This document shows positions 2,130-54,621 of a stretch of DNA of 64,000 bases, in pieces. The notes under the pieces are model-generated. The model was not told the DNA's origin. It saw nothing but the letters and a program-made list of their open reading frames with translations, and did not search any database. Source of the DNA: a plasmid; the sequence record AP029161.1; one strand, written 5' to 3'. Positions within the stretch are counted from its first letter, which is position 1. Every line of letters starts with the position of its first letter. The translations under genes were made by a program, and so were the position numbers.

Positions 2130-2504
2130 TTAAGCGGCTTTTTTATTTCCAAACACTGCATTAAATAGTTTATCTCTAATATCTAAATCAAACATGTCTT
2201 CAACATTATAAAAATCAAACTCTTTTTCATCGCAAAATAAATGTAATTCGTTTTCAAAATCACTTGATTCGTCGTATGTGATTTCATTGATTTTATATTT
2301 ACCAGTAAAATCAACCGCAACTTCATTGTCAAAATCATAGTATTCGTTAAAAAGATATATATATTTCATATCTTTTGATATAAATATTAATTGCTCCAAA
2401 CCATCAATCTTATCATCATAACAAGCTTCTTCGTAAATAAAGTCATTCGGAGATAAGTTTAACTCTGTTGATGCAAGATTAAAATAAGAATCTATTTTAT
2501 TCAT
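2130..2504 (-). CDS. acidic hypothetical early protein
   Basis: Start codon embedded in conserved leader CATTTCAGTTCTCCCTTTGGGAT (2502..2524). Confidence 0.5.
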   Translation of the reverse strand: MNKIDSYFNLASTELNLSPNDFIYEEACYDDKIDGLEQLIFISKDMKYIYLFNEYYDFDNEVAVDFTGKYKINEITYDESSDFENELHLFCDEKEFDFYNVEDMFDLDIRDKLFNAVFGNKKAA

Positions 2505-2715
2505 TTCAGTTCTCCCTTTGGGATTTGTGTTGATGTGAAACTTTTTGTCTCACATATAATTGTTTACATCCGTTTAAACATTTTGTCAAACATTTTAGTT
2601 GATTAATTTAAAATATTTTTTTTATTTTTGTTTGACAAAAATTTATTTACATGTAAATATTTATTTGTGGAACGATAGTCGACCACACTAAACAAATCCC
2701 TTAGGGAGAACTGAA

Positions 2716-3105
2716 ATGGTAAATAATAAGATTCTATTACCTCTTCGCAATATTAATTTATTGGATCTTAATCCAAATGATACTGTCATTTTTTCAAACG
2801 GTGAGCAAAGAAAAGTTAAAAAAGTACAAATAGATAATGAACAAAAGGTTTATTATTTTGATATAGAATTTGATAAAGCTATTAAACTTCATCCAGAATC
2901 AAGAACAAAATCAAAAAGTAATTTATTTTACATTGATGGCAAATACATAGAAGATGAAAACAACAATTGTGTGAACATTGTTTCAATTTTGCCTTGTAAC
3001 TCAGATCAGAAAATAACATCAAAATATGCACACTATTCTAAAGAAGAGTTGATCTTACAAATCGAGAACTTATTAAGAAGCACAAAAAAGCTTGCCTCAA
3101 ACTAA
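2716..3105 (+). CDS. hypothetical early protein
   Basis: ATG preceded by conserved leader CCCTTAGGGAGAACTGAAATG. Confidence 0.5.
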   Translation: MVNNKILLPLRNINLLDLNPNDTVIFSNGEQRKVKKVQIDNEQKVYYFDIEFDKAIKLHPESRTKSKSNLFYIDGKYIEDENNNCVNIVSILPCNSDQKITSKYAHYSKEELILQIENLLRSTKKLASN

Positions 3106-3126
3106 AAATTATTTGGAGAAATTAAA

Positions 3127-3354
3127 ATGAAAGCATCTCAAGCAATTGAACTTATGCAGATGATAATTGATATTTATGGAGATTGTGATTTTTGGATATT
3201 CAATGACACATACGGAGATCATAAAGTTCAATCCATCAAATTTGGAAAAAATAAATTAGGTAAAGACGTTGTGTTTCTTGACTTTGACGACAAAGAAGAT
3301 GGGAAAGATAAGGAATTTACATTAAAAGATTTAAATGAAGTTAAAGCATCTTAA
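3127..3354 (+). CDS. hypothetical protein
   Basis: ORF track; RBS-like gga 8 nt upstream. Confidence 0.4.
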   Translation: MKASQAIELMQMIIDIYGDCDFWIFNDTYGDHKVQSIKFGKNKLGKDVVFLDFDDKEDGKDKEFTLKDLNEVKAS

Positions 3355-3385
3355 TTAATTTAGATAATCAGAATGTAGGAATATC

Positions 3386-4688: not shown

Positions 4689-5411
4689 ATGACTAAGGTT
4701 TTAATTTTAGATACTGAAACTACAGGACTCGATAAAAGATCTCATTCAATAGTTGAAGTTGCAGCTATTAGCGTTGATTTAAGGTATAAAAAAATTGAAT
4801 CACAAAGAGCTGGTTTAATTTACGCAGTAACTAATCTCGATTCTGAAAATTTAACTGGAATCACTCAAGAAATGCTTGATGGTGTTAAAAATGCTACTGA
4901 CGACCCATTTGATACAATAAAATTAATGGCTAACTATTGCGATTGCATTGTGGCTCATAATGCTGAATTTGATAAAGGATTCGTTGAAGCAAGAGGAATT
5001 ATTCTAAAGGGTAGGAACAATCTTCCTTTAGAATGGATTTGCTCTTATCGCGACCTTGAGTATGACCTTCCAACAATCAATAAAAAATTAGGGACACTTG
5101 CAGAGGCTTATAGCGTAAATTCAGGTGGAGCACATAGAGCATTAGCTGATGTTACTATGCTCGCTCAGGTCCTCTTTAAATTACCTAACATCGAAGAGCA
5201 AATTATTAGAGCAATTGAAAATAAGAAAAAGCCTGAGATAAAAATTATCTCGCTAGCACATTACGATAGAAAGGATGATGTAAAAAGGGCTGGCTTTAGA
5301 TGGGACCCACAAAATAGAATCTGGTGGAAAAGCATCAGAGCAGCTAATGAAAATGAATTAAGAAATATAATTGATATACTTGGGTTTGATGTGAAAATTT
5401 TAACTCATTAA
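4689..5411 (+). CDS. DEDDh 3'-5' exonuclease (DnaQ/epsilon-like) domain protein
   Basis: Motifs LDTETTGLD (Exo I), VAHNAEFDKGFV (Exo II), HRALADV (Exo III) in order. SD aaggag upstream. Confidence 0.75.
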   Translation: MTKVLILDTETTGLDKRSHSIVEVAAISVDLRYKKIESQRAGLIYAVTNLDSENLTGITQEMLDGVKNATDDPFDTIKLMANYCDCIVAHNAEFDKGFVEARGIILKGRNNLPLEWICSYRDLEYDLPTINKKLGTLAEAYSVNSGGAHRALADVTMLAQVLFKLPNIEEQIIRAIENKKKPEIKIISLAHYDRKDDVKRAGFRWDPQNRIWWKSIRAANENELRNIIDILGFDVKILTH

Positions 5412-8959: not shown

Positions 8960-10060
8960 TCATTTTATAAACCGACTATACAGCTCTGATATTTTTCCAC
9001 CGCTTTGAAGAAAAAATGAATTTTTTTCGTTGCTATTTTCATGAATAAAATATTTGTATTTGTTTGTCTTATTTTTAAAATCATTTTTTAACTCATACTC
9101 AGCATCTTCTCTTGAATCAAAGTACTCAATAAATTCTGAAATATTTTCTACTCCGTGCTGAGGATAGGTTGAGTTAATCATTTCCAAAAAAAGATGTTTT
9201 AAAGAATTATTAATATAAAAATAAGAAGATACATATTCTCTTCTATAATATTTACTTTCATCTTTTTTAACCTGCAAAATAGAAGGAAGAGGAATGCCAA
9301 ACCTACCACCATCACACCATACCAAAATCAATTCACCAATTTTGGTTTCTTTGTATTTAATTGTTAAAATGTCGGTGTAAGATTTCTGATCGTTAAAAAC
9401 TAAAACCCAATTTTCAAAATATTCTCTATTAAATTTACTTTTCTCAGAAATTATTGAAAAATTAGGATCTGGTTCATAATAAAAATGCAGTTTAGTATCA
9501 TTTACATAATTGTATTTCCAATTATTTTTATCTTTAAGATAAGTCATTATTTTTTCATTTGGAGTTTTGTCGATATTAAATCTTTCACGGTACATGTCTT
9601 CTATTTGTTTAGGAGTTGCGCTTCCATTCTTTGGTGTATTGCTGCTGCCAAGTCTCGTGTAAACTACACCTGCTCTAATTGTATCTTTTCCTTGACCATA
9701 GTCTTGCGTTAGAAAATAAGGTTTATGATTTATGTTTTGAATTTGAATAATATCTATAGGATTATCTCTGTAATTTAAAGCAAATAACTTTATATTAGGA
9801 AGATTATTTAATCTTGCATTTTTTACTAAGTCCATTAAGTCATTTTCTTTTTTTCTCTTAATATCATTTTTAATATCAAAGAAATTTTTATCGTCATCAA
9901 CGCCAAAAATAAGATATTTATACTTGCTATCAGTTTTTGAATTTGCAAGACATAATATGTCATGAATTAAATCTGAATTATTTTTATGATATTCTCTTTT
10001 AAAATCTATAAATTCACATTCTTGATTATTAATCAATTGCTTAATTTCTTCGTGATTCAT
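8960..10060 (-). CDS. AlbA_2 / Schlafen-like (divergent AAA) DNA-binding domain protein
   Basis: N-terminal pattern EFIDFKREY..LANSK..YLIFGVDDD typical of the AlbA_2 domain. The C-terminal ~200 aa are unassigned. Confidence 0.55.
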   Translation of the reverse strand: MNHEEIKQLINNQECEFIDFKREYHKNNSDLIHDILCLANSKTDSKYKYLIFGVDDDKNFFDIKNDIKRKKENDLMDLVKNARLNNLPNIKLFALNYRDNPIDIIQIQNINHKPYFLTQDYGQGKDTIRAGVVYTRLGSSNTPKNGSATPKQIEDMYRERFNIDKTPNEKIMTYLKDKNNWKYNYVNDTKLHFYYEPDPNFSIISEKSKFNREYFENWVLVFNDQKSYTDILTIKYKETKIGELILVWCDGGRFGIPLPSILQVKKDESKYYRREYVSSYFYINNSLKHLFLEMINSTYPQHGVENISEFIEYFDSREDAEYELKNDFKNKTNKYKYFIHENSNEKNSFFLQSGGKISELYSRFIK

Positions 10061-10113: not shown

Positions 10114-10127
10114 TTAGACAGTCCGTT
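10114..10127 (+). promoter_or_regulatory. late-operon motif TTAGACAGTCCGTT, copy 1 (upstream of terS)
   Basis: 33 nt before the ATG at 10160. TAAATT lies 17 bp after TTAGACA. Confidence 0.55.
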
Positions 10128-10159
10128 ACAAACCCAATAAATTATTTTTTGGGGGTGTT

Positions 10160-10624
10160 ATGAAAAAGCAAACTAAAAAAATAAAAAACCCAAAAGGATC
10201 TGGTCGAAAAAAACTATTTCAAGAAAAGTATCACGAAGAAATTATTCAGACCATGAAAAAAGGCCAAGGAGTTTCATTTTTTGCAGCTAAGATAGGAGTT
10301 TCAAAACAAACCATCTACAACTGGATTAACGAAAATGTAGAATTTAAGGAATCATTTGAAATTGCTCAGACAGCATGCCAAGCATTTTGGGAGAATTTGG
10401 CTTTAAATAATGCAGTAACAGCAAAAGGAAATGGGAATCAAATACAATACCAAATGAGTAAAAGATTTAGAGATGACTATGCTGATTCTTCTCAAATAAA
10501 TATTTTTAACTCTAATAATCAAAATGTAAATAGATCTATAAAAGATATGACAAGAGAAGAACTAGAAGCATATGAAAAAGATTTACTTCAAAAGTTGAAT
10601 TTAGAAAGCAATAATGAGCATTGA
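10160..10624 (+). CDS. terminase small subunit-like HTH protein
   Basis: Basic N-terminus with HTH (GVSKQTIYNWINEN). It lies immediately upstream of terL and overlaps it. Confidence 0.5.
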   Translation: MKKQTKKIKNPKGSGRKKLFQEKYHEEIIQTMKKGQGVSFFAAKIGVSKQTIYNWINENVEFKESFEIAQTACQAFWENLALNNAVTAKGNGNQIQYQMSKRFRDDYADSSQINIFNSNNQNVNRSIKDMTREELEAYEKDLLQKLNLESNNEH

Positions 10625-16628: not shown

Positions 16629-16682
16629 TTACTATTTGGACATTCCGTTTATCTCTTCTTAATATAAAAATTAGGAGGAGAT

Positions 16683-18876: not shown

Positions 18877-18886
18877 ACAGTCCGTT
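18873..18886 (+). promoter_or_regulatory. late-operon motif TTAGACAGTCCGTT, copy 2
   Basis: 21 nt upstream of the ATG at 18907. Confidence 0.55.
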
Positions 18887-23136: not shown

Positions 23137-23540
23137 TATTTCTCCAATATTTTACACAGTTCTTTTGCTATATTTTTGTCTGACTTAGCACTAATCGTTA
23201 AAAATAGATTAATTTTATGTTCAAGTTTTTCTTTTCTCTTAGCTATTTTTTTTATATCGCATACAATTAATTCATCAACAAGACCTTTTTCTCTCAATAG
23301 TTTTTTTTGTATTCCTGTTCTTATGTCTTGACCTAAAAAAAGACAAACTCTCGATCTTAAATGTATTTTGCGATATCGCGATGGTTTAATTTTTGCTTTT
23401 CTTATTTGACCTTCAATAGCATTCTTACTTTTATTGAAGATAAGACTTAAATCTTCAAATGAATATTCGATAGTAGGATCTAAATCAAAAAATCCCGTTA
23501 CCCAATCAGCAAAAGATCTTCCTCTATATGTCTTTATCAA
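23136..23540 (-). CDS. HTH DNA-binding protein, paralog A (TTG start)
   Basis: RGRSFADW..YSFEDLSLIFNKSKNAIEGQI. The start lies inside the conserved leader, with TTG in place of ATG. Confidence 0.45.
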   Translation of the reverse strand: MIKTYRGRSFADWVTGFFDLDPTIEYSFEDLSLIFNKSKNAIEGQIRKAKIKPSRYRKIHLRSRVCLFLGQDIRTGIQKKLLREKGLVDELIVCDIKKIAKRKEKLEHKINLFLTISAKSDKNIAKELCKILEK

Positions 23541-23574
23541 TTCAGTTCTCCCTATGGGATTGGTTTTACATTGA

Positions 23575-23587
23575 CGGACTGTCTAAA
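23575..23587 (-). promoter_or_regulatory. late-operon motif, copy 3a (reads TTAGACAGTCCGT on the minus strand; drives the regulator/lipoprotein operon)
   Basis: Plus strand reads ACGGACTGTCTAA. Confidence 0.5.
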
Positions 23588-23602
23588 TTGTTTAGTTAAA
23601 GA

Positions 23603-23613
23603 GACTGTCCGTC
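23603..23613 (+). promoter_or_regulatory. late-operon motif variant GACTGTCCGTC, copy 3b (faces the head operon)
   Basis: Forms an imperfect dyad with 3a (TTGACGGACTGTC .. GACTGTCCGTCAA). Lies 35 nt before the ATG at 23648. Confidence 0.45.
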
Positions 23614-23647
23614 AAAGTGCTTTTATATTGAGCTATGAGGAGGCTTC

Positions 23648-24814
23648 ATGTCAACTGGGTACAATTTTGTAAAAATAAATACCGACAAACCGCACATAAC
23701 ATCGCAGGGTTTTTTAAGATGCAAGGTTGCAGCAAGTAAAACAGGAGTCTTCACTTATTATGATAAGCACGGAAAAATTAGAAGAGAGTTAAGACTACCA
23801 GAGGAAGTCTTTAATAAAGATAGCATGGCTAGTTTGGCGAATATTCCTTTTACTAATGATCATCCTTTAGAAGCTGTTAATGCTTTTAATTCAGAAAAAT
23901 ATACTAAGGGTTTTACAGATTCTACAGTTCAACAAAATAAAGATTTACTAGAAACCTACGTAACTATTACTGATGCAAAACTAATTCAAAATATTTTAGA
24001 TGGAAAAAAAGAAGCATCAGCAGGATATTCGAGGGATTTAGAATATAAAAGCGGAGAATACGAAGGAAAACCATACGACTGCATTCAAAGAAATATTCGC
24101 TACAACCATTTAGCTCTCGTAAATAAAGGTAGAGCAAATAAAGATGAAGAATTAGCAAGAGTAAAGTTAATTTTAGATTCAGCAGATGCTGAAGATGATA
24201 TTTCGATAGAAATAGAAAATGAAAATTTAAATAGTTTAGAAAAAGAAGGAGAAAAATTTTCTATGAAGTTAAATTTAGATGGTATTGATCACGAATTTAC
24301 AGATGCTAATTTAGCAATTGCTGTAAATGATAAAATAAATAAAGATCTATTAAAAATAAATGAACTAAAAAATGCAAATGAAGATTTTAAGAAAAAGCTT
24401 GATGCTGTTAGTGCAGAAAAAGACGCTCTTAAGCTTAATTTAGATTCATTAAGCAATGAAATTAATGAATTGAAAAACGCTCCAAAAATTGATGATAAAT
24501 TGATATTAGAAAAAGCAAACGAATTAATTGAAGTTAAATCTTTTGTGGCTAGAGCCTTACCAAAGCTAAATCTAGACGGACTCAGTGCGGAAGAAATCAG
24601 AAAACAATTTGTCTCAGAAAAATTTGGAAAAGAACATACTAGTGACAAATCGATTGATTACATCAGAGCTTCATTTGATGCGTTTAAGAAATTAAATAAC
24701 GTTACTAATAATGATGCAGAAGCAAAAGCAGTGGCGAGTCATTTTCAAAATAGCACTAATGATTCAAGAGCTTCAGCAAGAGATAATTATATGAATAAAT
24801 TTTCTGGTAAATAA
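23648..24814 (+). CDS. prohead protease / scaffolding fusion protein (XkdF/DUF2213-like N-terminus, coiled-coil C-terminus)
   Basis: Position before the capsid gene. C-terminal half is a heptad coiled coil (KINELKNANEDFKKKLDAVSAEKDALK). Confidence 0.45.
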   Translation: MSTGYNFVKINTDKPHITSQGFLRCKVAASKTGVFTYYDKHGKIRRELRLPEEVFNKDSMASLANIPFTNDHPLEAVNAFNSEKYTKGFTDSTVQQNKDLLETYVTITDAKLIQNILDGKKEASAGYSRDLEYKSGEYEGKPYDCIQRNIRYNHLALVNKGRANKDEELARVKLILDSADAEDDISIEIENENLNSLEKEGEKFSMKLNLDGIDHEFTDANLAIAVNDKINKDLLKINELKNANEDFKKKLDAVSAEKDALKLNLDSLSNEINELKNAPKIDDKLILEKANELIEVKSFVARALPKLNLDGLSAEEIRKQFVSEKFGKEHTSDKSIDYIRASFDAFKKLNNVTNNDAEAKAVASHFQNSTNDSRASARDNYMNKFSGK

Positions 24815-34596: not shown

Positions 34597-34634
34597 AATT
34601 CTCTCCTATTAAAAATTTAGGAGGTTTTTTATTT

Positions 34635-35872: not shown

Positions 35873-35886
35873 TTAGACAGTCCGTT
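35873..35886 (+). promoter_or_regulatory. late-operon motif TTAGACAGTCCGTT, copy 5
   Basis: 32 nt before the ATG at 35919. Confidence 0.55.
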
Positions 35887-35918
35887 CTTCTTTTTTTAAA
35901 TTGAAAAGAGGAGGTTTT

Positions 35919-42915: not shown

Positions 42916-42984
42916 TCTTTTTTTATTGACTACTAAATTTTTTTTTGTTTTCATTTATACCTTAGTTCAAATATTGAGGAATAA

Positions 42985-44009: not shown

Positions 44010-45614
44010 TTATTCATATATTTCTTTAATAAAATCTTTAAATGCTTCAGCTATTTCATATAGAGTAATACTACTATTTAATTCACTTTTTTGATGAAGA
44101 ATTTCTTGATTTAAATTTAAAATTTTATTTGATTGTTCAATAATTTTTTCTACACCAAAATTTTTTAAATTATCTTTATTTATAAATAAAATCATCATCC
44201 AATTATATATATTTACATACTCAATTTTACTAAATATTGATTCAATTTTATACTCCCTGTAAAATTCATTTAAAACAAACTCTCTAAATAGATAATATTC
44301 TACAGGAAAACCAAAGAAATTACATTTTTTATGATATACAATAGTGATAAAGTAGAGTTCTTTAAATTTTAAATAGTGATCGAAATTTTCTTTTACTATG
44401 TTATTAATTAAAGAATTCCAAAAATTATGAATTATACTTTGATTATTAAAATCTTTAAGATTTGTATCTCCTAATCTTAGATGGTTACATAAAACCTTTA
44501 AATTTTCTTCTAGTTCAAATTCATTTAAATGTATTTTTTTGGAAATTCTCCTTATTAAATCATTTAAAGTATTAAATTTTACTAGCATACTATAGCTATG
44601 GTAATCAGAATTGCTATTATTTAAATTAAAATATAGCATAAATTCAAAGTAATCAATTATTTCTATAATCTCTCTTGTGCTAAATATTTTTAAAAACTTA
44701 AGCTCATCAGGAAGAGATTTTGTTTCATTTAAAATAAATGGAAACATGTTGTTATTAATTTTTTTATGCAAAATATTATTTAATATCTCAGGAATTATAT
44801 CTAATTGAAAATATTTCGCATTTAATTTTTCGATCATTTCAATAGCATTGTTTTTATTGTCATTTTTCGAGTATCCAAAGGGGACTATGTATTTTCTCCT
44901 GTATCTGAGTAAATTTGATAATAAGGCCCAACGGTCTTCTTCTTTTAATGAACTTCGATCAAGATCATCTAAAATTATTACTTTAATTTTGTTATCGTAC
45001 CATAATTCAATAGATTCAAAAAAACAATTATAAATGTATGATATTTTTAATTTATTTGTTGCAAAAATAAAAGGAATAATTAAAAAAATGAAATAAATAA
45101 TTGTACTGTATGATGAATAATCAAAACCGACAATTTTTTTAAAATATAATTCATTATAAAATATAATCAAAATTGATAATATAAAATAATAAATGGAAAA
45201 AAATATTTTCCAGTGTTTTGGTGCTATATGTGAATACGCTTCATCTAAAGTAGAAATTCCAAAAAAAGAAATTTTCTTTTTATAATATCTACTATTCAAG
45301 CATAATTCATGAACTACTCTATCTGAAAGAGCGGATTTACCCGCACCCCATTCACCAATTATAAACACTGTTTTATTATTTCTATCTAAAAAAGCTTTAA
45401 TTTCACTAATTTTATTAGTATGATATTTGAATTCTATAAAATCCGAAGGAGTATTATTTTTATCTATTTCATTCCAAAATAGATAAAAAGATTCTTTCAA
45501 TATTTCATAGTATGTATATATGTTAAAAATTCTTTTGATTTTATTAGTACAATTATCTTTTAATTTAATATATTTTTCAGATTTTATCATACAAATTATT
45601 TCACCAGTGTACAC
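44010..45614 (-). CDS. KAP-family P-loop NTPase
   Basis: Walker A GEWGAGKSAL and Walker B VIILDDLDR are separated by two inserted TM helices (FFSIYYFILSILIIFY and IIYFIFLIIPFIFA), the hallmark of the KAP family. Confidence 0.7.
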   Translation of the reverse strand: MYTGEIICMIKSEKYIKLKDNCTNKIKRIFNIYTYYEILKESFYLFWNEIDKNNTPSDFIEFKYHTNKISEIKAFLDRNNKTVFIIGEWGAGKSALSDRVVHELCLNSRYYKKKISFFGISTLDEAYSHIAPKHWKIFFSIYYFILSILIIFYNELYFKKIVGFDYSSYSTIIYFIFLIIPFIFATNKLKISYIYNCFFESIELWYDNKIKVIILDDLDRSSLKEEDRWALLSNLLRYRRKYIVPFGYSKNDNKNNAIEMIEKLNAKYFQLDIIPEILNNILHKKINNNMFPFILNETKSLPDELKFLKIFSTREIIEIIDYFEFMLYFNLNNSNSDYHSYSMLVKFNTLNDLIRRISKKIHLNEFELEENLKVLCNHLRLGDTNLKDFNNQSIIHNFWNSLINNIVKENFDHYLKFKELYFITIVYHKKCNFFGFPVEYYLFREFVLNEFYREYKIESIFSKIEYVNIYNWMMILFINKDNLKNFGVEKIIEQSNKILNLNQEILHQKSELNSSITLYEIAEAFKDFIKEIYE

Positions 45615-47999: not shown

Positions 48000-48575
48000 T
48001 TAAACAATAGCCAAAACTTCTTCTCTACCTGCTTTACTCCCGCAAGGTATTTCATATCCTTTTCTAATTGCTTCTGCTAAAGCTTTTTTATCTACAATTT
48101 TAATAGTTTTTTCTTCAATAAATTCTTGAGGTATTTTGCTTTCATCTAATTGATTGACAACGTTTTTAATATCAGAAAAATCAACATTCCAATTAATCGC
48201 TTCAACTCCACCTTTGTTTCTAATTTTAAAAGATTTAATTGAGCCATGTATTTCTCGAACATTATTTTCTAGCATGATATTTAAAGTTTTCTTGTAAATA
48301 TCATCTTTAATTTTTGCAAGTTTTGTTTGTTTAATTTTAATATCTTTTATTATTTCATCAAATTGTTTCATTTGAATATCTAAAGCATCAATTAAAAAAA
48401 TCATTTTGTCAGTAGCTACTTGTGAATTAACTTCTGCAATATCTAGCGATGGAATTAAATCGTCTGGAATTTCTCCAGCTGTTACTTCCAAATATTCCAA
48501 GAATTCTGCTAATTTTTTTTGAGTTTCGGCGAAAGGAATTATTGCAGGAATAATAGCATTATCTTTTTTAGCCAT
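48000..48575 (-). CDS. Gp157-like recombination-associated protein
   Basis: Size, coiled coil, position beside SSB and divergent from RecT. Start lies in the conserved leader. Confidence 0.4.
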   Translation of the reverse strand: MAKKDNAIIPAIIPFAETQKKLAEFLEYLEVTAGEIPDDLIPSLDIAEVNSQVATDKMIFLIDALDIQMKQFDEIIKDIKIKQTKLAKIKDDIYKKTLNIMLENNVREIHGSIKSFKIRNKGGVEAINWNVDFSDIKNVVNQLDESKIPQEFIEEKTIKIVDKKALAEAIRKGYEIPCGSKAGREEVLAIV

Positions 48576-48768
48576 TTCAGTTCTCCCTTTGGGATAGGTT
48601 TTAAAATCGTCACAACGACGACAATGTTATTTTTACCACGTTGTAAATATTTGTCAACGGGTCGATATTAAAAAAATATTTACAATTATCAATTGACAAA
48701 TATAAAAATTAATTTTATTTTATATTTGTTACTTTTTAATCAACTCAAATCCCAAAGGGAGAACTGAA

Positions 48769-49767
48769 ATGGATACACAACGTCAGTGGAACGATTCTAA
48801 GAATCAGAAAACACCAATAATAAGTGAAAAAGACTTAAAGGAATTATCAAAAAGATATTCTGAATATTCAATTGAAAAATTAGATGCTTTACTCAAAACA
48901 ATAATTGTAAAAGAAGTTACACTAGCTGAAGTAGAAGCTTTTTTATACATTGCTAAACAATCTGGATTATGTCCATTCAAAAAACAAATTCAGCTAATAG
49001 ATTTTAAGGGAACTAAAAGACCATATACTACTATAGATGGCTTTAGAGTATTGGCTGAAAGAAGTTCGCAATATGTAGGTCAGACAACTCCATTATTTTG
49101 TGGGAAAGATAAAATATGGACTGAAGTATGGACGGAAAATACTCCGCCACTTGCAGCTAAAGTGGGAATTCTTCGTAAAGGATTTTTGGAACCTATTTTT
49201 GCTATTGCAAAATATTCTTCGTACAACAGCGATACTCCTACTTGGAAAAAAATGCCAGATGTCATGTTAGCAAAATGCGCTGAAGCATTAGCTTTTAGAA
49301 AAACATTTCCAGATAATATGTGTGGTTTATACACACTTGAAGAAATGACTCAAGCATCTAGTGAATTTAGTAATGAAATTGAATCACAAAATACAGAAAT
49401 AAAATCAATTACACCTAAGAGTAAAAAGACAGAAATTATTTCGGATGTGATTGAAGTTAAAACAGAACCTGAAAAAATAGTTAGTGTTCCTGAAGATGTT
49501 GTTAAAGCTAAAAATAGTTTAGAAAAAAAAGTGCAGTCTATAGACTGCAATGAAGATTATGAAGCCGTTTATAATGGCTGCGATGTACACAGAAGAAAAT
49601 TATGGGATTTATTTAGGGAGTTAAAAATATTTTCAGAAGTAAAAAATGACCCTAAAAAAACCGTTGAAGTATCTAAATATTTTGCAGAAAGATGCTTTGG
49701 CGTGCCACTTAATCAATTGCAAGAACATTTATTATCGCTGCAAGAAGAATATTTAAATGCTTGTTAA
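48769..49767 (+). CDS. recT: RecT-family single-strand annealing recombinase
   Basis: TIDGFRVLAERS..WKKMPDVMLAKCAEALAFRKTFPD..GLYTLEE core. Confidence 0.8.
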   Translation: MDTQRQWNDSKNQKTPIISEKDLKELSKRYSEYSIEKLDALLKTIIVKEVTLAEVEAFLYIAKQSGLCPFKKQIQLIDFKGTKRPYTTIDGFRVLAERSSQYVGQTTPLFCGKDKIWTEVWTENTPPLAAKVGILRKGFLEPIFAIAKYSSYNSDTPTWKKMPDVMLAKCAEALAFRKTFPDNMCGLYTLEEMTQASSEFSNEIESQNTEIKSITPKSKKTEIISDVIEVKTEPEKIVSVPEDVVKAKNSLEKKVQSIDCNEDYEAVYNGCDVHRRKLWDLFRELKIFSEVKNDPKKTVEVSKYFAERCFGVPLNQLQEHLLSLQEEYLNAC

Positions 49768-50308: not shown

Positions 50309-51502
50309 ATGCAAAATAATAGAAATAATTTGAGTAATCCGAAATATTTATGGTTCTTTGTAATGTCATTTACAGTAATTATGATTTTTGCGAATTGGTT
50401 TGATCCCAGACTAATTTTAATTCCTTTTTTTAATTTAGAAACTGATGCTGGAACTTTAATCTTTCCACTTACATTTTTAGTTTCAAATATCATTACAGAA
50501 GTATATGGATACAAACATGCCAGAAAAGCTATTTGGTGCGGCTTTGGATTTAATTTATTTGGCCTCTTATTTGGCCAGTTACTAATACATTTTCCTTCTC
50601 CAATTTATGCTGATAATGTAGCTTTTGATTCTGTAATTAAAAAAAGCTCGATTATTGTAATTGCTTCAATGATTAGCTATCTTGTTTCAGAGCCATTAAA
50701 CTCATATATAATGTCCAAAATGAAAATTAAATTTAAAAATTTAACTGCTTTGAGATTTGTAATGTCAACTTTTTTTGCTGCATTTGTTGATTCTATTGTT
50801 TTTACAGCGATAGCATTTTCTTGGTACTTAAAAATTGAAGACTGTGTAAAATTAGCTTTAACTATGTGGATGTTAAAAGTTTTAATTGAATCAATTGGTA
50901 CATTATTTTCTGTTAGGCTAACAAATTACTTAAAAAATAAAGAAAGAATAGATATTTATGATCGAAAAACAAAATTCAATATATTTAGTTTAAACACAAA
51001 TTACACTACTGAAGATAATGAATACAAAAATAATTTATCAAGTATAAACTCAGAAAACAATACTGAATATTATATAACAAATGATTTAACTGAAAAAGAA
51101 ATTGAAAGCTCATGGAATTTAGTAAAAAATTGTTTTTGGTCTGAAGAGATTCCTTACGTTAAGTTCAAAAGTGCTTTAAATAATTCATTAAATTTTTGCA
51201 TTGTTAATGTAAATTCGGGTCATATATGTGGGTTTGGAAGAGTAATAACTGATTACTACACTTATGCATATTTATGCGATGTCGTGATTCATCCTGAATA
51301 TAGGAAAAAAGGATTAGGAAATATATTAATTGACAATATTTTAAATCATAAGGATTTACAGGGATTGAAAACTATAAATTTACGTACAACTAAAGAAGCT
51401 AAAAAAATATATATTAAAAATGGTTTTAAATTAGCAAAAGATCCTGAATATATTTTAGAAAAAGAAGATTTAAATATTTATAAAAAATTTAAGGCAGTTT
51501 AA
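50309..51502 (+). CDS. fusion protein: N-terminal Vut_1/YhhQ queuosine-precursor transporter domain, C-terminal GNAT acetyltransferase domain
   Basis: FPLTFLVSNIITEVYG, FVDSIVFTAIAF and MWMLKVLIES resemble YhhQ. C-terminus has HPEYRKKGLGNILI GNAT motif A. Confidence 0.65.
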   Translation: MQNNRNNLSNPKYLWFFVMSFTVIMIFANWFDPRLILIPFFNLETDAGTLIFPLTFLVSNIITEVYGYKHARKAIWCGFGFNLFGLLFGQLLIHFPSPIYADNVAFDSVIKKSSIIVIASMISYLVSEPLNSYIMSKMKIKFKNLTALRFVMSTFFAAFVDSIVFTAIAFSWYLKIEDCVKLALTMWMLKVLIESIGTLFSVRLTNYLKNKERIDIYDRKTKFNIFSLNTNYTTEDNEYKNNLSSINSENNTEYYITNDLTEKEIESSWNLVKNCFWSEEIPYVKFKSALNNSLNFCIVNVNSGHICGFGRVITDYYTYAYLCDVVIHPEYRKKGLGNILIDNILNHKDLQGLKTINLRTTKEAKKIYIKNGFKLAKDPEYILEKEDLNIYKKFKAV

Positions 51503-52151
51503 CCTTAATTATTTCTCCAAGTATTTCATAATTTATATTTAGCTCTTCGATCTGAGAAGATTCTTTATCAATACTGCCTAACAAAATTCTTTTTCCATTA
51601 ATCAAAATTCTTTTTAATGATATTTTATCTTTATATTTAATAGCACAAATTGTATCATTTTCAGGTTTTTTATTAATATTTACAAACCAAATTGAGCCTT
51701 CATTAAAAATAGGTTTTATAAAATCATCAAATTTAAAGCCAAATATCTTATCGTTTATATATTTTATATCAATATCAGTATCAGTGTAAAACAAAGCTTC
51801 TTTTGAATCAGAAGGACTATAAACTGGAATATTTTTCAGTGTTTTCTTTGGAATAATACTAACATCTTCAGTGTAAATTTTCTTGACTCCTAGAATATCA
51901 TCAAGTGAAATATTATACCCATTATTTTGAAAATAATTAGCAATTTTTTTCAAAACCATTTTAGAAATGTATTTCGTTTTTTTTGTTTCATCATTACTTA
52001 ATAAACGATAAAAAACAGATGAAGAAACGTCTATAGCCTCAGCCAAAGCATTTAAAGAAAAATTAGAGTCTTTATCTTTTTTTAAATTTATTAATTTAAT
52101 TATCTGATTTTGAATATGATGCGTATTTTCGACGCTGTCCCACGCTGCCAC
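51489..52151 (-). CDS. CI-like HTH transcriptional regulator
   Basis: N-terminal HTH LNALAEAIDVSSSVFYRLL. C-terminal domain lacks clear S24 catalytic residues. Confidence 0.45.
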   Translation of the reverse strand: MAAWDSVENTHHIQNQIIKLINLKKDKDSNFSLNALAEAIDVSSSVFYRLLSNDETKKTKYISKMVLKKIANYFQNNGYNISLDDILGVKKIYTEDVSIIPKKTLKNIPVYSPSDSKEALFYTDTDIDIKYINDKIFGFKFDDFIKPIFNEGSIWFVNINKKPENDTICAIKYKDKISLKRILINGKRILLGSIDKESSQIEELNINYEILGEIIKVKLP

Positions 52152-52279
52152 GACATCTCTCCTAAATTTTTAAAATTATATTGCTAAAAAAATCGTTATG
52201 CTTTATAAGCATATTCAACACTTAGCATTATCAAGGAGATAAGTGAAGTGGTTTAAAAAAAAAGAGGCGCACATTTTGA

Positions 52280-53584
52280 ATGCACACCACTACCGCAAAT
52301 AGAATGTATCTCAAATGTGCACAAAAATCAAATATTTCGCACAGGGAGAGCTACGTGTCTGATTTTATTATGTCAAATGCTTACCAAAAATCCTCCAAAA
52401 CCAGAAAAACATACAAAAATAAATTAATTTTAAGACCGATGAAAGAGGGTTATACGCTTGGGCATGCTCAAAAAGAAGCTTATAATGGTGGACGCTCATT
52501 AAGAGCGATTTGGTCAAATTCGAGTTTAAAGCCAAATCAAAAATTAGTGTTGTTGTGTCTTGCGTCCCACTTAAATTTCAAAAATACTTTTAAAGCTTGG
52601 CAGAAAATTTCTGCAAAACAAATTGCAAGTGAAACGCAATTTGGAATTCGTACTATCCATTCTATTTTAGCTGATTTAGTAAAAAATGGTTATTTGTTAA
52701 AAAAACAAAATTTTTCAAGCAAAACTTTTTTACAAGAAGAAAATAGTTATTGTTTATCAGATAAGCTTTTTGATGAGCATGTTATTTATTTGCAAAAAAG
52801 TTTTATCCCCAAGCACGATGAGCACGTTAAAGAATTTAAGCAACAAAAATTTGCAAAAAAGAGTTATATACCTTCTGCAAAACCTGCAGAGGCGGTAAGC
52901 AAAGCCTGCAACCCTGCCTTGCAAGATTCGCAAGCCGCCATTGCAAAACCTGCAGACGTTTTTCCTCTTGTATTTTCCCCTAATTTTCTCCCTTTAAATA
53001 ATTCCATGTGTGGTGAAAATAAATCACACACAAAAAATGAACATAAAAATAGCAAAAATTTAAAACAGGCAAGTATTATTGTTTGCGAGTTGCTTAAGCA
53101 TAAATTAAATAAACGCTTTATCCCAAATTTTGAATGTGAGGGCATTATAGAAAGGTCAATAAGCAAGCTTAATATTATTGATATTAAGATAATCTTAGAC
53201 TTTTGTAAGGAAGCAATCTCTAATCCCAATTACAAGAAGATTAACAGTTATGAAAATATTGAAGTTATTTTCATTCAAGAGCTTGAAAGTTTCATTAATG
53301 ATAAAAATTATATTTCAAATTTCAGAATTTCAGATCATAAAGAAATAAAAACGGAGATAATTAAAGCTGAACCTCTTGCAGAAAACAAAACTCAAACTGT
53401 AATAGAAGAATATCCTGAACCATTCAAATCATGGTTCAAGACGCTCAACGAAACAACAAAAAATACTATTCGAAAAGAAATAAAAATTCATGGCAGAGTT
53501 AAATTTTTTAACTTAATCCTTCCATCCGTAAGAGCTTATAAATCCTTTATAGAGCAATTAGACTCAGAAAGAAGGGCTGCATGA
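52280..53584 (+). CDS. putative phage replication initiator (winged-helix N-terminal region). True start is probably downstream of 52280.
   Basis: NQKLVLLCLASHLN..ISAKQIASETQFGIRTIHSILADLVKNGYL winged-helix-like. Confidence 0.35.
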   Translation: MHTTTANRMYLKCAQKSNISHRESYVSDFIMSNAYQKSSKTRKTYKNKLILRPMKEGYTLGHAQKEAYNGGRSLRAIWSNSSLKPNQKLVLLCLASHLNFKNTFKAWQKISAKQIASETQFGIRTIHSILADLVKNGYLLKKQNFSSKTFLQEENSYCLSDKLFDEHVIYLQKSFIPKHDEHVKEFKQQKFAKKSYIPSAKPAEAVSKACNPALQDSQAAIAKPADVFPLVFSPNFLPLNNSMCGENKSHTKNEHKNSKNLKQASIIVCELLKHKLNKRFIPNFECEGIIERSISKLNIIDIKIILDFCKEAISNPNYKKINSYENIEVIFIQELESFINDKNYISNFRISDHKEIKTEIIKAEPLAENKTQTVIEEYPEPFKSWFKTLNETTKNTIRKEIKIHGRVKFFNLILPSVRAYKSFIEQLDSERRAA

Positions 53585-53841
53585 TTAATAAATATTGCTA
53601 CGTGTGCAGCTTCCCGATTGTTTTTTCAAAAACCAGAACAAAAAAATATTACTGCGAAAAGCATAATATTTGTGCTACCGAAAAAACAAAGATTCTGAAA
53701 AAAAGAGGTCGGAAAAAGCTTGATGAAATAGATAGAATAGAAAAAGAAATAGAAAGAAAAAAATATAAAAAAATACTGAATAGAGACTATTATAATTTCG
53801 TAGTAAGAGAAAAAAGACAAATTAAAAAAGAATCGAGATAA
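53581..53841 (+). CDS. small basic zinc-binding protein
   Basis: CYVC..CEKHNIC, followed by a hairpin terminator TTTTACCA..TGGTAAAA. Confidence 0.4.
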   Translation: MINKYCYVCSFPIVFSKTRTKKYYCEKHNICATEKTKILKKRGRKKLDEIDRIEKEIERKKYKKILNRDYYNFVVREKRQIKKESR

Positions 53842-54030
53842 TTTTTTTCGTATTTTACCACTACCTGATGGTAAAATACCCTTAAAAAAAGTCAGACAAA
53901 AAAATCGACACATGAGATTTTTTAAATTACATTTTTATCAGAACCCTTTTATAAAATCGTTCCTTTAGGAATAGCCGAAGTAAAAAGTAAAAGGGTTCAC
54001 AAGAAACCATTCCCTTTGGGAGTACCGAAA

Positions 54031-54621
54031 ATGCAGAGTATTAAGATAATTAATACCTCTAATAATGAGGTATTTTATGCTACTGAAAAATCAGTAGGAT
54101 TTGATATTGCAGCGGATGAAAGTGTTTTAATTTTACCGCTGCAAGTTAAAAAAATAAAAACTGGCTTAAAATGGAAAATAGAAGATAATTCTGAATTAAT
54201 AAGCATAAAAGAGGCTGCTAAATTAGTTAAATGCTGCACCTCAACAATCCATCGACAATGTAAAAAAGGTAGGCTTAATTTTGAAAAAATAGATGGAGTT
54301 TATTTTATAAATAAGGATCATCTTTTATCGTATTTTAATAATGAAGAAATAATCGATTTACCTGAAAAATATGAGCTTCAAATAAGACCTAGAAGCTCCT
54401 CACTACTAAAAGAAAAACTTCATATACAAATAGGAACAATTGACCCTGATTACACTGGTGAAATTTGTATTATCGCACAAAATATTTCTTTTAAACCAAA
54501 ATTAATTTTAAAAGGGGAGCGGATTGCTCAAGGAATAATATCGAAAGTTTGTTTAGCTGAAAACGTATTTAGTAGAAATATAATTAGAAACAATAATGGT
54601 TTTGGGAGTACTGGAAAATGA
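54031..54621 (+). CDS. dut: dUTPase with ~50-aa HTH-containing insertion between motifs I and II (start revised to the ATG at 54031)
   Basis: All five dUTPase motifs present (VGFDIAA, RPRSS, GTIDPDYTGE, RIAQG, NNNGFGSTGK). Insertion ISIKEAAKLVKCCTSTIHRQCKKGRL is excisionase/MerR-like HTH. Confidence 0.65.
   Translation: MQSIKIINTSNNEVFYATEKSVGFDIAADESVLILPLQVKKIKTGLKWKIEDNSELISIKEAAKLVKCCTSTIHRQCKKGRLNFEKIDGVYFINKDHLLSYFNNEEIIDLPEKYELQIRPRSSSLLKEKLHIQIGTIDPDYTGEICIIAQNISFKPKLILKGERIAQGIISKVCLAENVFSRNIIRNNNGFGSTGK

Follow-up and report, generated by a model that had tools for sequence, protein, structure and literature searches.

A hairpin-bearing Shine-Dalgarno cassette at six operon-leading genes of a Silvanigrellaceae phage-plasmid

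In the Silvanigrellaceae phage-plasmid that Pigmentibacter ruber carries as a plasmid-like prophage, the first genes of six operons are each headed by a near-identical cassette of about 30 nt, a specific, non-generic and selected feature tied to translation starts. As related elements also keep it, the cassette is probably a dedicated signal for translation control. The analysis covered a 64,000-nt stretch of sequence record AP029161.1 (the window), which we infer to represent ~94% of the phage-plasmid pGTC16762-2.

Six cassettes on start codons

Searching the window with CCCWWWGGGAGAACTGAAATG at up to three mismatches returned five matches (Table 1), and none of 100 dinucleotide shuffles contained any; a single mismatch gives site S3 its TTG start. 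The set comprises five copies of CCCWWWGGGAGAACTGAA(A/T)TG and a sixth, diverged copy, TTCCCTTTGGGAGTACCGAAAATG (54010-54033, plus strand), every one terminating exactly on the start codon of its open-reading frame. A covariance model trained on the copies of the window and of its relatives recovers exactly these six from the window, with E-values between 2e-9 and 4e-7 against more than 5 for the next match. The near-identical leaders described at six gene starts in the initial annotation are real. Conservation extends further 5' than the 21-23 nt given there, to AAAC[AC]WAT, and the third site (23541-23563) had been placed 3 nt off, the cassette including its TTG occupying 23538-23560. GGGAGA lies 6 nt from the ATG in the window (7 nt in the dUTPase copy) and GGGAG 6 to 9 nt from it in relatives, the fixed 8-9-nt spacing once proposed being recovered only by counting from the middle of the Shine-Dalgarno (SD) sequence. 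ORF 54618-54818 is headed by GGGAGTACTGGAAAATG (54604-54620), an incomplete seventh site that lacks the CCC arm and escapes the covariance model.

The functional labels first attached to these genes fared less well. The S3 gene, whose (M)IKT N-terminus agrees with an ATG-started orthologue in L031, had been called a late regulator, a label left without support by a 134-aa product with no match in Pfam, PHROG or PDB and no usable model. The term early gene is unsupported at every site, and as S3 stands behind a motif common to structural-gene operons (TTAGACAGTCCGT), the cassette set is not purely early. The dUTPase gene is indeed cassette-headed; it is in fact an HTH_17-dUTPase fusion starting at ATG 54031, and the TTG at 54016, listed by the ORF finder, falls inside the S6 cassette.

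A further account, chance or a generic host ribosome-binding site, can appeal to the GGAG core, which is an ordinary SD. It is refuted within the available data and its probability is practically nil: besides the empty shuffles, ~87 other window genes carry plain AGGAG or AAGGA with A/T spacers and no cassette, CC lies within 9 nt upstream of the SD at just 2 of the 72 ordinary starts that have one, and on the co-resident plasmid pGTC16762-1 neither the covariance model (124 kb scanned) nor inspection of the 69 annotated starts revealed a cassette. As an exact string, the 21-mer is absent from the metagenome collection and has just two chance matches among 185,579 species-representative genomes. 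The copies S1-S5 differ in the loop (AAA, TTA, ATA, TTT) but never in the stem, SD or tail, a pattern which suggests position-specific constraint and not recent copying. Identity ends abruptly at the cassette edges, leaving no flanking homology able to drive gene conversion.

Table 1 Cassettes, candidate promoters and predicted leader structures in the window
Feature	Sequence or structure	Position	Strand	Basis	Gene, relatives and remarks
S1 cassette	AACACAAATCCCAAAGGGAGAACTGAAATG	2502..2531	-	covariance model, 38 bits, E 1e-7	match to CCCWWWGGGAGAACTGAAATG 2502-2522; 124-aa ORF 2130-2504; orthologous cassette in S. paludirubra
S2 cassette	TAAACAAATCCCTTAGGGAGAACTGAAATG	2689..2718	+	motif search, covariance model	match 2698-2718; 129-aa ORF 2716-3105, orthologue in S. 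paludirubra; operon contains RNase_T-type exonuclease (4689-5411)
S3 cassette	AAAACCAATCCCATAGGGAGAACTGAATTG, TTG start	23538..23567	-	motif search, covariance model	match 23538-23558; 134-aa ORF 23136-23540 in structural module, divergent from head-protease gene; orthologous cassettes in L021, L022, L023, L031
S4 cassette	AAAACCTATCCCAAAGGGAGAACTGAAATG	48573..48602	-	covariance model, 44 bits	match 48573-48593; gp157/Gam-like gene 48000-48575, then SSB; orthologues in ~10 relatives
S5 cassette	AACTCAAATCCCAAAGGGAGAACTGAAATG	48742..48771	+	motif search, covariance model	match 48751-48771; RecT gene 48769-49767; orthologous cassettes in relatives
S6 cassette, diverged	GAAACCATTCCCTTTGGGAGTACCGAAAATG	54003..54033	+	covariance model	HTH_17-dUTPase gene 54031-54621; S6 version kept orthologously in L016, L017
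S1 sigma70-like promoter candidate	TTGACA-17-TAAACA	2561..2589	-	consensus match only	
S2 sigma70-like promoter candidate	TTGACA, then TAAATA/AATATT	2632..2661	+	consensus match	
S3 sigma70-like promoter candidate	TTGACA-17-TCAATA	23626..23654	-	conserved in L021, L022, L031	overlaps protease gene start
S4 sigma70-like promoter candidate	TTGACA-17-AAAAAT	48629..48657	-	TTGACAAAAATTTACATCTA block conserved in relatives	
S5 sigma70-like promoter candidate	TTGACA-17-TATTTT	48693..48721	+	consensus match	
S6 sigma70-like promoter candidate	TCGACA-17-TACATT	53905..53933	+	consensus match	
S1 promoter-proximal hairpin	-8.2 kcal/mol	2534..2554	-	homologous hairpin GTGAGACAAAACGACTCAC in S. paludirubra	
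S2 promoter-proximal hairpin	-4.2 kcal/mol	2667..2686	+	folding, S. paludirubra comparison	
S4 promoter-proximal hairpin	UCGUC GUUGU GACGA	48607..48621	-	covariation	
Long inverted repeat 5' of S3	two divergent copies of structural-module motif TTAGACAGTCCGT	23571..23615	-		
S6 long stem-loop	GAACCCTTTT...AAAAGGGTTC	53941..53998	+	-15.8 kcal/mol	
Second cassette-like hairpin and tail	GTTCC TTTA GGAAT AGCCGAAG	53959..53980	+		no SD or start codon

Predicted hairpin, leaders and relatives

Each cassette is predicted to form a hairpin of 3-6 bp with a 3-nt A/U loop, in which the SD itself, GGGAG, makes up the 3' arm and is followed by a conserved tail W-A-Y-Y-G-A, then 0-3 nt and AUG (UUG at S3). 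The CCC-N3-GGG mini-hairpin proposed from a single sequence holds as a prediction and is stronger in relatives, where stems of 5-6 bp cover the whole SD; the five main window copies have 4 bp, and S6 has 6 bp (AUUCCC/GGGAGU), again spanning the whole SD. Predicted energies are modest (-3.9 to -6 kcal/mol), and at 37 °C the SD of each of the six sites has a predicted chance of at most 0.003 of being unpaired, whereas the median among 38 other genes is 0.14. Pairing is kept despite sequence change (CCC/GGG, UCC/GGA, UUCC/GGAA, with U.G pairs common), the closing pair flips between A-U and U-A within single genomes (S4 vs S5 in L015 and L030, S1 vs S2 in S. paludirubra), and U.G or a mismatch, never C-G, occupies the closing position. 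Covariation across copies is suggestive but not conclusive: for the ten TCC-type copies the score was matched by just 8 of 500 shuffles, whereas formal covariation is weak among the 16 of CCC type, whose core of four pairs is invariant and whose outer pairs scored no better than shuffles (176/500). Other operon heads of the element (portal, at -15.8 kcal/mol, and ORFs 10160, 34635 and 35919) also occlude their SD, with unrelated sequences, and the portal structure covaries in relatives.

Upstream, each unit has a TTGACA-type candidate promoter about 41-91 nt before the start codon, and most units show the predicted order of a promoter-proximal stem-loop, an A-rich single-stranded linker (AAAC[AC]WA) and the cassette; promoters, transcription starts and hairpin formation are all predictions. 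The gap between cassette and start codon differs by just 0-3 nt, whereas the predicted promoter-to-cassette distance is variable (leaders of about 41-91 nt), and orientation always follows the gene; judged by position, the cassette is tied to the start codon and not to the promoter. The S4 leader hairpin retains 7 of 9 consensus pairs through two-sided changes in eight relatives, and the inverted repeat 5' of S3 could form an RNA hairpin of -16.2 kcal/mol whose arms covary in L021 and L022. In the S6 leader, the long stem of L016 (GAACTCTTTT/AAAAGAGTTC) reads as a compensatory change, and nested within this stem is the second cassette-like hairpin, kept with its tail in three genomes (GTTCCTTTAGGAATAACCGAA in L016, ATTCCTCTAGGAATAACCGAA in L017); as this conserved copy lacks an SD and AUG, the motif also occurs outside a ribosome-binding role.

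Cassettes of the same kind head orthologous genes of Silvanigrellaceae elements from Silvanigrella, Fluviispira and metagenomes. The S. paludirubra element has one at all of S1-S6, and those of S3, S4 and S5 are present in up to ~10 further lineages. Their sequence is lineage-specific, with copies inside a genome closer to each other than to their orthologues: window paralogues (S1-S5) share 91% identity, orthologues 82%, the tail reads ACUGA at five sites of the window and AYCGA at all six of S. paludirubra, and in L019/L026, as in L028, S4 and S5 carry identical copies. Tails are genome-specific (ACUGAA; AYCGA; UCCAAC; ACAGAG) in hosts that presumably share an anti-SD. In L017 the S4/S5 cassettes (ATCCTTTAGGAGA) differ strongly from that of S6 (ATTCCCCTAGGGAGTACCGA), and in F. 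vulneris a cassette variant stands in front of the major capsid gene. Among known elements, the start-associated sequences found in cluster K mycobacteriophages are the nearest analogue.

Candidate roles of the cassette

In our preferred reading, to which we give a probability of roughly 0.4, the cassette acts at the RNA level as a translational operator of first cistrons, and a putative sequence-specific factor reads it. With the SD paired by the hairpin, de novo 30S loading on the six first cistrons would be held low and uniform, and the hairpin plus its sequence-specific 3' tail would serve as a shared handle for one RNA-binding factor. That factor, most likely encoded by the element itself, might repress translation, activate it or, as a nuclease, cut the SD. 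Neither kind of reader suggested at the outset came to light: no trans-RNA complementary to the cassette was found, and the ~70 window proteins compared with Pfam, most of them without assigned function, included no match to the RegA, RegB, CsrA, Hfq, S1, KH, CSD or NusG families. The late operon heads indicate that occlusion itself requires no specific factor, the L017 divergence means that one factor need not read all sites, and the F. vulneris capsid-gene cassette would fit a good ribosome-binding site equally well.

Several of these points favour the main rival, only slightly less probable, of a purely cis-acting, standardised initiation module without a dedicated factor. A 5' stabiliser hairpin, A-rich standby linker, weakly hairpinned strong SD and optimal spacing would give context-independent, moderately throttled and possibly temperature-sensitive translation of the first cistron, and the likeness of the copies would go back to shared ancestry, strong purifying selection and occasional copying events. 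Translational coupling brings no benefit to first cistrons, and all six cassettes head operons; SD-sequestering leaders are a general habit of the element, hairpin energies are modest, and the closing position avoids C-G as if stability were capped. However, many sequences can occlude an SD, as the late operons illustrate, so occlusion alone leaves an invariant tail and stem at sites 21-46 kb apart unexplained; the genome-specific tails and the non-ribosome-binding copy in the S6 leader are likewise unaccounted for, and the sharp cassette edges speak against gene conversion. A DNA operator is unlikely. Here a dimeric protein would bind the palindrome TCCC-W3-GGGA and block or modulate transcription immediately 5' of the six genes; like many operators, the core is palindromic, over 11 bp, around an A/T-rich centre of variable sequence, dispersed DNA motifs are clearly used elsewhere in the element (TTAGACAGTCCGT), and HTH proteins are available (a CI-like HTH+S24 protein at 51489-52151, an HTH_3 protein at 15243-15671 and another at 60715-60948). 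Conservation is nevertheless asymmetric, the 3' tail and 5' AAAC linker not being mirror images, and the T opposite G in the extended stem (10/16 CCC-type and 6/10 TCC-type copies) pairs in RNA but mismatches in a DNA palindrome; fixed position relative to the start codon, variable position relative to the promoter and gene-bound orientation also count against it.

Lower in probability again is a target for an SD-cutting endoribonuclease of the T4 RegB/S1 type, in which GGAG plus the 3' tail would be a cleavage signal inactivating the mRNAs at a set time, with access modulated by the hairpin. T4 RegB sites and cassettes are alike in being SDs of non-structural operon heads, and GGAGAACUGAA agrees at 10 of 11 positions with the published strong-site consensus GG*AGRAYARAA (PMC3014915). 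That degenerate consensus is, however, equally frequent in shuffles at up to one mismatch (15 found, 13.5 expected), the scanned proteins include no RegB-family member, and secondary structure protects from RegB (PMC3014915), whilst cassette SDs are predicted to be paired. Lowest of these is a recombination linker, the shuffled module junction of the initial annotation, with the shared 20-30 bp as micro-homology for exchanging modules between related elements, or as inverted repeats for a promoter-inversion switch. Promoter/stem-loop cassettes of T4-type phages have been proposed as such micro-homology, the element encodes RecT, a gp157/Gam-like protein, SSB and an exonuclease, and S1/S2 and S4/S5 form inverted repeats around promoter regions of 170-190 bp. 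One BLASTN block against S. paludirubra stops at the very start of RecT, whose N-terminus is divergent, but blocks otherwise cross the cassettes and the S3 breakpoint lies within the gene. Between-lineage differences in cassette sequence defeat a shared-linker role, the promoter segment keeps one orientation in all ~10 relatives, S3 and S6 are solitary, and the idea leaves unexplained both why the hairpin contains the SD and why the cassette keeps a fixed place relative to the start codon.

The interpretation first proposed is, as a whole, partly supported. If the cassette is a translational operator, factor and operator would co-evolve, which would explain likeness within genomes alongside difference between lineages, and such a factor would switch together the translation of recombination (gp157/SSB, RecT), dUTPase and unknown-function operons.

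Cassette copies, their specificity and the element that carries them

A pattern scan of the window with CCCWWWGGGAGAACTGAAATG at up to three mismatches returned five matches, and none were returned across 100 dinucleotide-preserving shuffles; together with a sixth, diverged copy (TTCCCTTTGGGAGTACCGAAAATG, 3′ end at 54033) these confirm the cassette that the initial annotation had placed at six gene starts. The 3′ end of all six copies is the start codon of an open-reading frame, whilst at the 5′ side the conserved stretch reaches AAAC[AC]WAT, beyond the limit first drawn, so the element is ~30 nt long (sites S1–S6, see table of coordinates). A covariance model, trained on the copies in the window and its relatives, picked out precisely S1–S6 in the window, at E values between 2e-9 and 4e-7; its next match had E>5. 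Some details required correction: the cassette at the third site is present but had been placed 3 nt off, GGGAGA lies 6 nt from the ATG and not the 8–9 nt reported, and the dUTPase gene, which is indeed headed by a cassette, is an HTH_17-dUTPase fusion starting at 54031. At the six window cassettes 7–8 nt separate GGGAG from the start, and in relatives 6–9 nt. The N-terminal HTH_17 domain is excisionase/MerR-like and the same fusion occurs in three related loci (L016, L017 and L018). Within the 3′ end of this dUTPase gene a partial cassette-like RBS without the CCC arm, GGGAGTACTGGAAAATG, heads an overlapping ORF, and is kept in L016 and L017.

The cassette is not simply the generic RBS, as judged within the window and a co-resident plasmid. 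The ~87 other predicted window genes possess AGGAG/AAGGA-type SDs with A/T-only spacers, and a CC no more than 9 nt upstream of the SD core is found at 2/72 ordinary SD-bearing starts versus 6/6 cassettes. Across 124 kb of the co-resident plasmid pGTC16762-1 there was no covariance-model match better than E=5 and no copy of the 11-mer GGGAGWAYYGA, and among its 69 annotated starts GGGAG is present at two and the cassette at none. Searches with the exact 21-mer gave only two matches, judged chance, in 185,579 species-representative genomes, and 0 in a metagenome collection; 11 exact matches in viral contigs were also set aside as chance, because each was single and inside a coding region of unrelated contigs (36–55% GC). 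Rfam curated covariance models gave no match at gathering thresholds in the window and none at cassettes or leaders at E<=1. Elsewhere, a long near-perfect hairpin inside an ORF (56303-57262) drew weak microRNA-precursor matches (E 0.004–0.02) with scores far below gathering, and is probably just a palindrome.

The window (27.6% G+C) encodes a large terminase, portal, MuF-like protein, head protease and major capsid protein, along with ParA, ParB, a CI-like HTH+S24 repressor, an O-like replication initiator, and the recombination proteins RecT, gp157/Gam-like and SSB; no tRNA genes were found in it. The announcement of the P. ruber GTC16762 genome lists a circular plasmid, pGTC16762-2, of 67,953 bp and 27.75% G+C, which it does not call a phage (PMC11385108). 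Two proteins encoded in the window match Pigmentibacter ruber GTC16762_33060 and GTC16762_32700 at 100% identity. We infer that the window represents 64,000 bp of pGTC16762-2, and hence of a phage-plasmid. Megablast of two 4-kb pieces against known phages gave no match, TerL relatives among known phages reached at best <=41% identity, and a RecT-based locus search of viral contigs found no relatives. Syntenic relatives are present as separate ~63–68 kb contigs in Silvanigrella paludirubra (WFLM01000009.1, 67.6 kb; loci L016, L021 and L086) and Fluviispira vulneris (JACRSE010000008.1, 63.4 kb; L022), and also in freshwater metagenomes. This is apparently a phage-plasmid family across three Silvanigrellaceae genera, so far undescribed; in the window a myovirus-like structural module is combined with ParAB and a CI-like repressor, and the P. 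ruber isolate is human.

Several further genes were noted in passing. A Schlafen/AlbA_2-domain protein and a weak nSTAND3 NTPase match are possible defence or counter-defence cargo, as is an Acb2/Tad1-hairpin-domain protein encoded in the dUTPase operon of relatives (L016 1858-2187). The 140-kb pGTC16762-1 carries a type II CRISPR-Cas9 locus. The RecT operon contains a fusion of Vut_1 (a putative vitamin/queuosine-precursor transporter) with a GNAT acetyltransferase, in place of which relatives have MFS transporter and GNAT genes.

Coordinates of cassettes, motif copies, leader hairpins and other features in the window
Feature	Coordinates	Strand	Remark
S1, 124-aa ORF	2502-2531	-	CCCWWWGGGAGAACTGAAATG match 2502-2522
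S2, 129-aa ORF	2689-2718	+	CCCWWWGGGAGAACTGAAATG match 2698-2718
S3, 134-aa ORF	23538-23567	-	CCCWWWGGGAGAACTGAAATG match 23538-23558; single mismatch turns ATG into TTG
S4, gp157/Gam-like gene	48573-48602	-	CCCWWWGGGAGAACTGAAATG match 48573-48593
S5, RecT gene	48742-48771	+	CCCWWWGGGAGAACTGAAATG match 48751-48771
S6, HTH_17-dUTPase gene	54003-54033	+	diverged copy
HTH_17-dUTPase gene	54031-54621	+
Extra hairpin, S6 leader	53959-53980
Partial RBS GGGAGTACTGGAAAATG	54604-54620	+
ORF headed by partial RBS	54618-54818
TTAGACAGTCCGT, exact	10114-10126	+
TTAGACAGTCCGT, exact	18873-18885	+	farther than 33-35 nt upstream
TTAGACAGTCCGT, exact	23574-23586	-
TTAGACAGTCCGT, exact	34583-34595	+
TTAGACAGTCCGT, exact	35873-35885	+
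TTAGACAGTCCGT, exact	40074-40086	+	farther than 33-35 nt upstream
TTAGACAGTCCGT, diverged	16636-16648	+
TTAGACAGTCCGT, diverged	23600-23612	+
Leader hairpin burying SD, portal	16650-16685		-15.8 kcal/mol
Leader hairpin burying SD, ORF 42985	42950-42987		-11.5 kcal/mol
Leader hairpin burying SD, ORF 35919	35886-35921		-9.6 kcal/mol
Leader hairpin burying SD, ORF 10160	10127-10162		-8.9 kcal/mol
Leader hairpin burying SD, ORF 34635	34596-34637		-7.8 kcal/mol
terS-like gene	10176-10336		161-bp stretch of the gene
Schlafen/AlbA_2-domain protein; weak nSTAND3 match	8960-10060; 44010-45614	-; -
Vut_1-GNAT fusion	50309-51502	+
Near-perfect hairpin	56664-56751	both

Leader anatomy and variation among relatives

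Every cassette stands at the first gene of a transcription unit: S1/S2 (2.5 kb) and S4/S5 (48.6 kb) head divergent pairs, S3 is divergent from the head-protease gene and S6 leads the dUTPase operon. The leaders run from a promoter candidate of TTGACA type (consensus match only, 41–91 nt 5′ of the start codons) through a promoter-proximal stem-loop, present in most, and an A-rich linker to the cassette; in the S4 (gp157) leader, 7/9 consensus pairs of this stem-loop are maintained via two-sided changes in eight relatives. The window cassette is predicted to fold as UCCC-WWW-GGGA (4 bp, about -3.9 kcal/mol) and S6 as AUUCCC-UUU-GGGAGU (6 bp, -5.9 kcal/mol), with the SD as the 3′ hairpin arm in every cassette, and at 37 °C a fully unpaired SD has a predicted probability of <=0.003 at each of the six cassettes versus a median of 0.14 in 38 other genes. 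The 90-nt S6 leader contains an extra hairpin and tail, GTTCC-TTTA-GGAAT-AGCCGAAG, nested in a long stem and with no usable SD or start codon. Two other genomes keep this copy, as (G/A)TTCC-loop-GGAAT-AACCGAA, so the hairpin-plus-tail is not confined to ribosome-binding sites.

In relatives, the orthologous genes have an element of this kind whose sequence is lineage-specific (see table of relatives), and all six sites are common to the P. ruber and S. paludirubra elements. Each of the 29 copies examined contains an inverted repeat whose 3′ arm is the SD (CCC/GGG, UCC/GGA or UUCC/GGAA), U·G pairs were frequent, and the closing pair alternates between A-U and U-A within single genomes (L015, L030, and S1 versus S2 of S. 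paludirubra). Five window sites share the tail ACUGA; in S. paludirubra the tails of all six read AYCGA. Copies in the same genome are more alike than orthologues, S1–S5 of the window sharing 91% identity among themselves versus 82% to their orthologues. A single alignment of all 28 copies was dropped, and CCC-type copies (3-nt loop) and TCC-type copies (4-nt loop) were analysed apart because their pairing registers differ. Covariation, which the initial annotation had proposed as a check, was indicated in the TCC-type (n=10; score reached in 8/500 shuffles, core pairs invariant, outer pair covarying) but was not significant in the CCC-type (n=16; four core pairs invariant, outer pairs no better than shuffles, 176/500), and these formal pair counts are only suggestive.

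Cassette sequences in relatives of the element
Genome or locus	Site	Cassette
S. paludirubra	S1	CATTCCCATAGGGAGTATCGAAAATG
S. paludirubra	S2	CTTTCCCATAGGGAGAACCGATATG
S. paludirubra	S3	CATTCCCTCAGGGAGAACCGAATG
S. paludirubra	S4	CTTTCCCAAAGGGAGAACCGACATG
S. paludirubra	S5	AAATCCCAAAGGGAGAATCGAAAATG
S. paludirubra	S6	CATTCCCTAAGGGAGTACCGATTAATG
L017	S4/S5	ATCCTTTAGGAGA(CTCAA/TCACA)ATG
L017	S6	ATTCCCCTAGGGAGTACCGAAAAATG
L019/L026	S4 and S5	TTCCAAAAGGAGTCCAACATG (L019 cassette type: UUCCAAAAGGAGUCCAAC)
L015/L029	S4/S5	TTCCATTAGGAG(AA/T)CCA(AT/TC)ATG
L028	S4 and S5	TTCCCAAAGGGAGTACCGTGATG
F. vulneris	S3	ATCCCAAAGCGGAGACAGAGATG
F. vulneris	capsid gene	TTTCCAAATGGAGACAGAGATG (variant)
L023	S3	TTTCCATAAGGAAGGCCAAAAATG

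The S3 cassette and the structural-module operon heads

The gene behind S3 had been labelled a late regulator, for which we found no support, its 134-aa product having no detectable relatives of known function. Nor does the label 'early' hold for the whole set, as S3 lies 33 nt downstream of TTAGACAGTCCGT, a motif facing structural operon heads, and the cassettes are therefore not purely early; for the recombination and dUTPase operons the label is plausible. The products of S1, S2 and S3 gave no Pfam or PHROG match and no PDB sequence relatives, and AlphaFold single-sequence models among them had pLDDT of 38 and 49, too poor for a fold search.

The 13-mer TTAGACAGTCCGT, usually found after AAT, occurs in exact form six times in the window, each time facing a structural-module operon head, and in diverged form at two positions. 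Most copies lie ~33–35 nt upstream of operon-head start codons, the heads being the terS-like gene, portal, protease, ORFs 34635 and 35919 and the S3 gene, and four relatives keep the motif ahead of the portal gene; its probable role is that of a late promoter or an activator site. A 'long hairpin' adjoining S3 is in fact two divergent copies of the motif. Over 161 bp, the terS-like gene shares 82% identity with a small ORF of the co-resident plasmid pGTC16762-1 (AP029160.1 54052-54212; L014 20001-20161). Several late operon heads possess long leader hairpins that bury the SD, and sometimes the AUG too, in mutually unrelated sequences, and in the portal hairpin the pairing is maintained in relatives despite sequence change. 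The phage-plasmid seems to occlude the SD of first cistrons as a general design.

Readings of the cassette and comparison with known systems

The cassette is tied in position to the start codon rather than the promoter, is asymmetric and gene-oriented and tolerates U·G in its stem, which argues for an RNA rather than a DNA element and makes a DNA operator improbable. Within S1–S5 the loop is variable whilst stem, SD and tail are invariant, and this pattern, the genome-specific tails and the copy outside an RBS suggest that a sequence-specific partner reads the hairpin and tail. On these RNA-like features and signs of a partner we tentatively favour, at a probability of roughly 0.4, a translational operator common to the six first cistrons. 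An element-encoded RNA-binding protein (or nuclease) would read the SD-containing hairpin together with its 6-nt tail, and from lineage to lineage the factor would evolve in step with its operator. A Pfam scan of ~70 window products (~25 structural ORFs and the 3.95 kb outside the window excluded) produced no candidate factor, and an RNAduplex search of both strands for a complementary RNA, as the initial annotation had proposed, found only the cassettes' own antisense; the best non-cassette site, at about -22 kcal/mol, lies within coding sequence and was judged chance. The lack of a factor among the products scanned and of a complementary RNA, the two different cassette types in the single genome of L017, the variant at the F. 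vulneris capsid gene, and the SD occlusion by unrelated sequences at other operon heads all support a purely cis-acting, standardised and mildly throttled RBS module for genes unable to use translational coupling, which is the main rival and, in our estimate, only slightly less probable.

The initial annotation had also raised a recombination-shuffled module junction, yet BLASTN against 12 related loci revealed no breakpoints at cassettes. The promoter segment has a constant orientation in about 10 relatives, so promoter inversion was rejected, and the window products scanned included no recombinase; a recombination linker or inversion switch is thus very improbable. The target of a RegB-like nuclease is quite improbable: the cassettes fit the consensus GG*AGRAYARAA at 10/11 positions (PMC3014915), but 15 matches with <=1 mismatch were found versus 13.5 expected, which is not above chance, and the ~70 products scanned contain no REGB_T4 match. 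The T4 RegB site is GGAG with a specific 3′ extension, and RegB is inhibited by structure (PMC3014915). Other candidates were rejected: a hairpin promoter as in N4 or a GGGAGA promoter as in T7 (a phage RNA polymerase gene is absent, and the SD-like position counts against it), GAAC as a -35 box of ECF type (not followed by a conserved -10), and a lambda nut or HK022 put-like antitermination site (loop not conserved, element locked to the start codon).

Among known phage regulators, T4 RegA binds unstructured, AU-rich sites. The likeness to RegA and RegB would be in one phage factor at the initiation regions of many non-late mRNAs; the difference is that no RegA-family member was found in the ~70 products (Pfam, with the same exclusions). 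In the coat-protein operators of MS2, Q-beta and PP7 and in Mu Com/mom, a small hairpin at the SD or start is the protein-binding site, its marginal stability shifted by the protein; these have a single target and loop-specific recognition, whereas the cassette has six targets and a loop free to vary. PeSL cassettes of T4-type phages, reportedly described by Arbiol, Comeau and Krisch in 2010, are said to be promoter and stem-loop repeats at early gene starts, proposed for modular shuffling. They repeat the promoter, whereas the cassette repeats the RBS itself and has no mosaic breakpoints there. SD-sequestering RNA thermometers (ROSE, fourU) are short hairpins that pair with the SD and melt physiologically. 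The cassette hairpin is likewise predicted to pair with the SD at a stability in the physiologically meltable range, but shows no fourU/ROSE sequence features and no Rfam match at cassettes, and the hairpins are weaker in the host isolated from a human, the reverse of what simple temperature compensation would give.

Of the systems described so far, the nearest is the start-associated sequence (SAS) of the cluster K mycobacteriophages, a motif of 13 bp that includes the SD and sits within about 3–9 nt of the starts of non-structural genes, absent from the host and often preceded by ESAS, a promoter/inverted-repeat element (PMC3203893). Its authors, who described it in 2011, considered both a role in cis and a factor, either protein or RNA (Pope et al., PMC3203893), and its function was still untested according to PMC11373665 (2024) and PMC12699233 (2025). 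Both are short asymmetric motifs with an SD core, a few nt from the start, in a single orientation (six of six cassettes) and with symmetric outer G/C triplets; both mark a subset of mostly non-structural genes in temperate phage, with subsets preceded by a promoter-plus-inverted-repeat element and an associated-repeat consensus that varies between sub-lineages. In SAS, conservation continues past the positions that can pair with 16S rRNA; in the cassette the 5′ arm, linker and 3′ tail are conserved, and would lie past them if canonical anti-SD pairing is assumed for the host 16S. SAS is absent from its host; the cassette is absent from the 124 kb of pGTC16762-1 and its exact 21-mer from the species-representative genomes, bar the two chance matches. 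The cassette looks like SAS yet is outside the SAS family, because the consensus is absent (GGGATAGGAGCCC had 0 window matches at <=2 mismatches and no sequence relationship), neither phage type nor host phylum is related, the hairpin is built differently (the SD is the 3′ arm of CCC-N3-GGG in the cassette and lies between GGG and CCC in SAS), and there are 6 copies versus 11–19, at operon-leading genes only. SAS is restricted to non-structural genes, whereas S3 stands in the structural module and F. vulneris has its capsid-gene variant, and unlike SAS the cassette has relatives that give some evidence for RNA pairing. A convergent counterpart of SAS, in the form of a six-operon post-transcriptional regulon of Silvanigrellaceae phage-plasmids under an element-encoded RNA-binding protein or nuclease, is conceivable, if rather uncertain.

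RBS-containing repeats that extend past the SD have been known from cluster K mycobacteriophages since 2011, and the cassette is an independent, much simpler case, with six sites, all at first cistrons, and a predicted SD-occluding hairpin. Its host phylum, Bdellovibrionota, is little-studied, and the plasmid-prophage family is undescribed, with one member in a human clinical isolate. A dedicated factor, if it exists, would represent a new regulator of translation in phages, acting through a compact and portable operator; without one, the cassette would be a natural 'standard RBS part' showing how phages insulate the expression of operon-leading genes. Under either reading the lineage-specific variants are natural material for specificity swaps, and if the six-operon regulon is true, the long-open SAS question could become experimentally tractable through its six sites and lineage variants.
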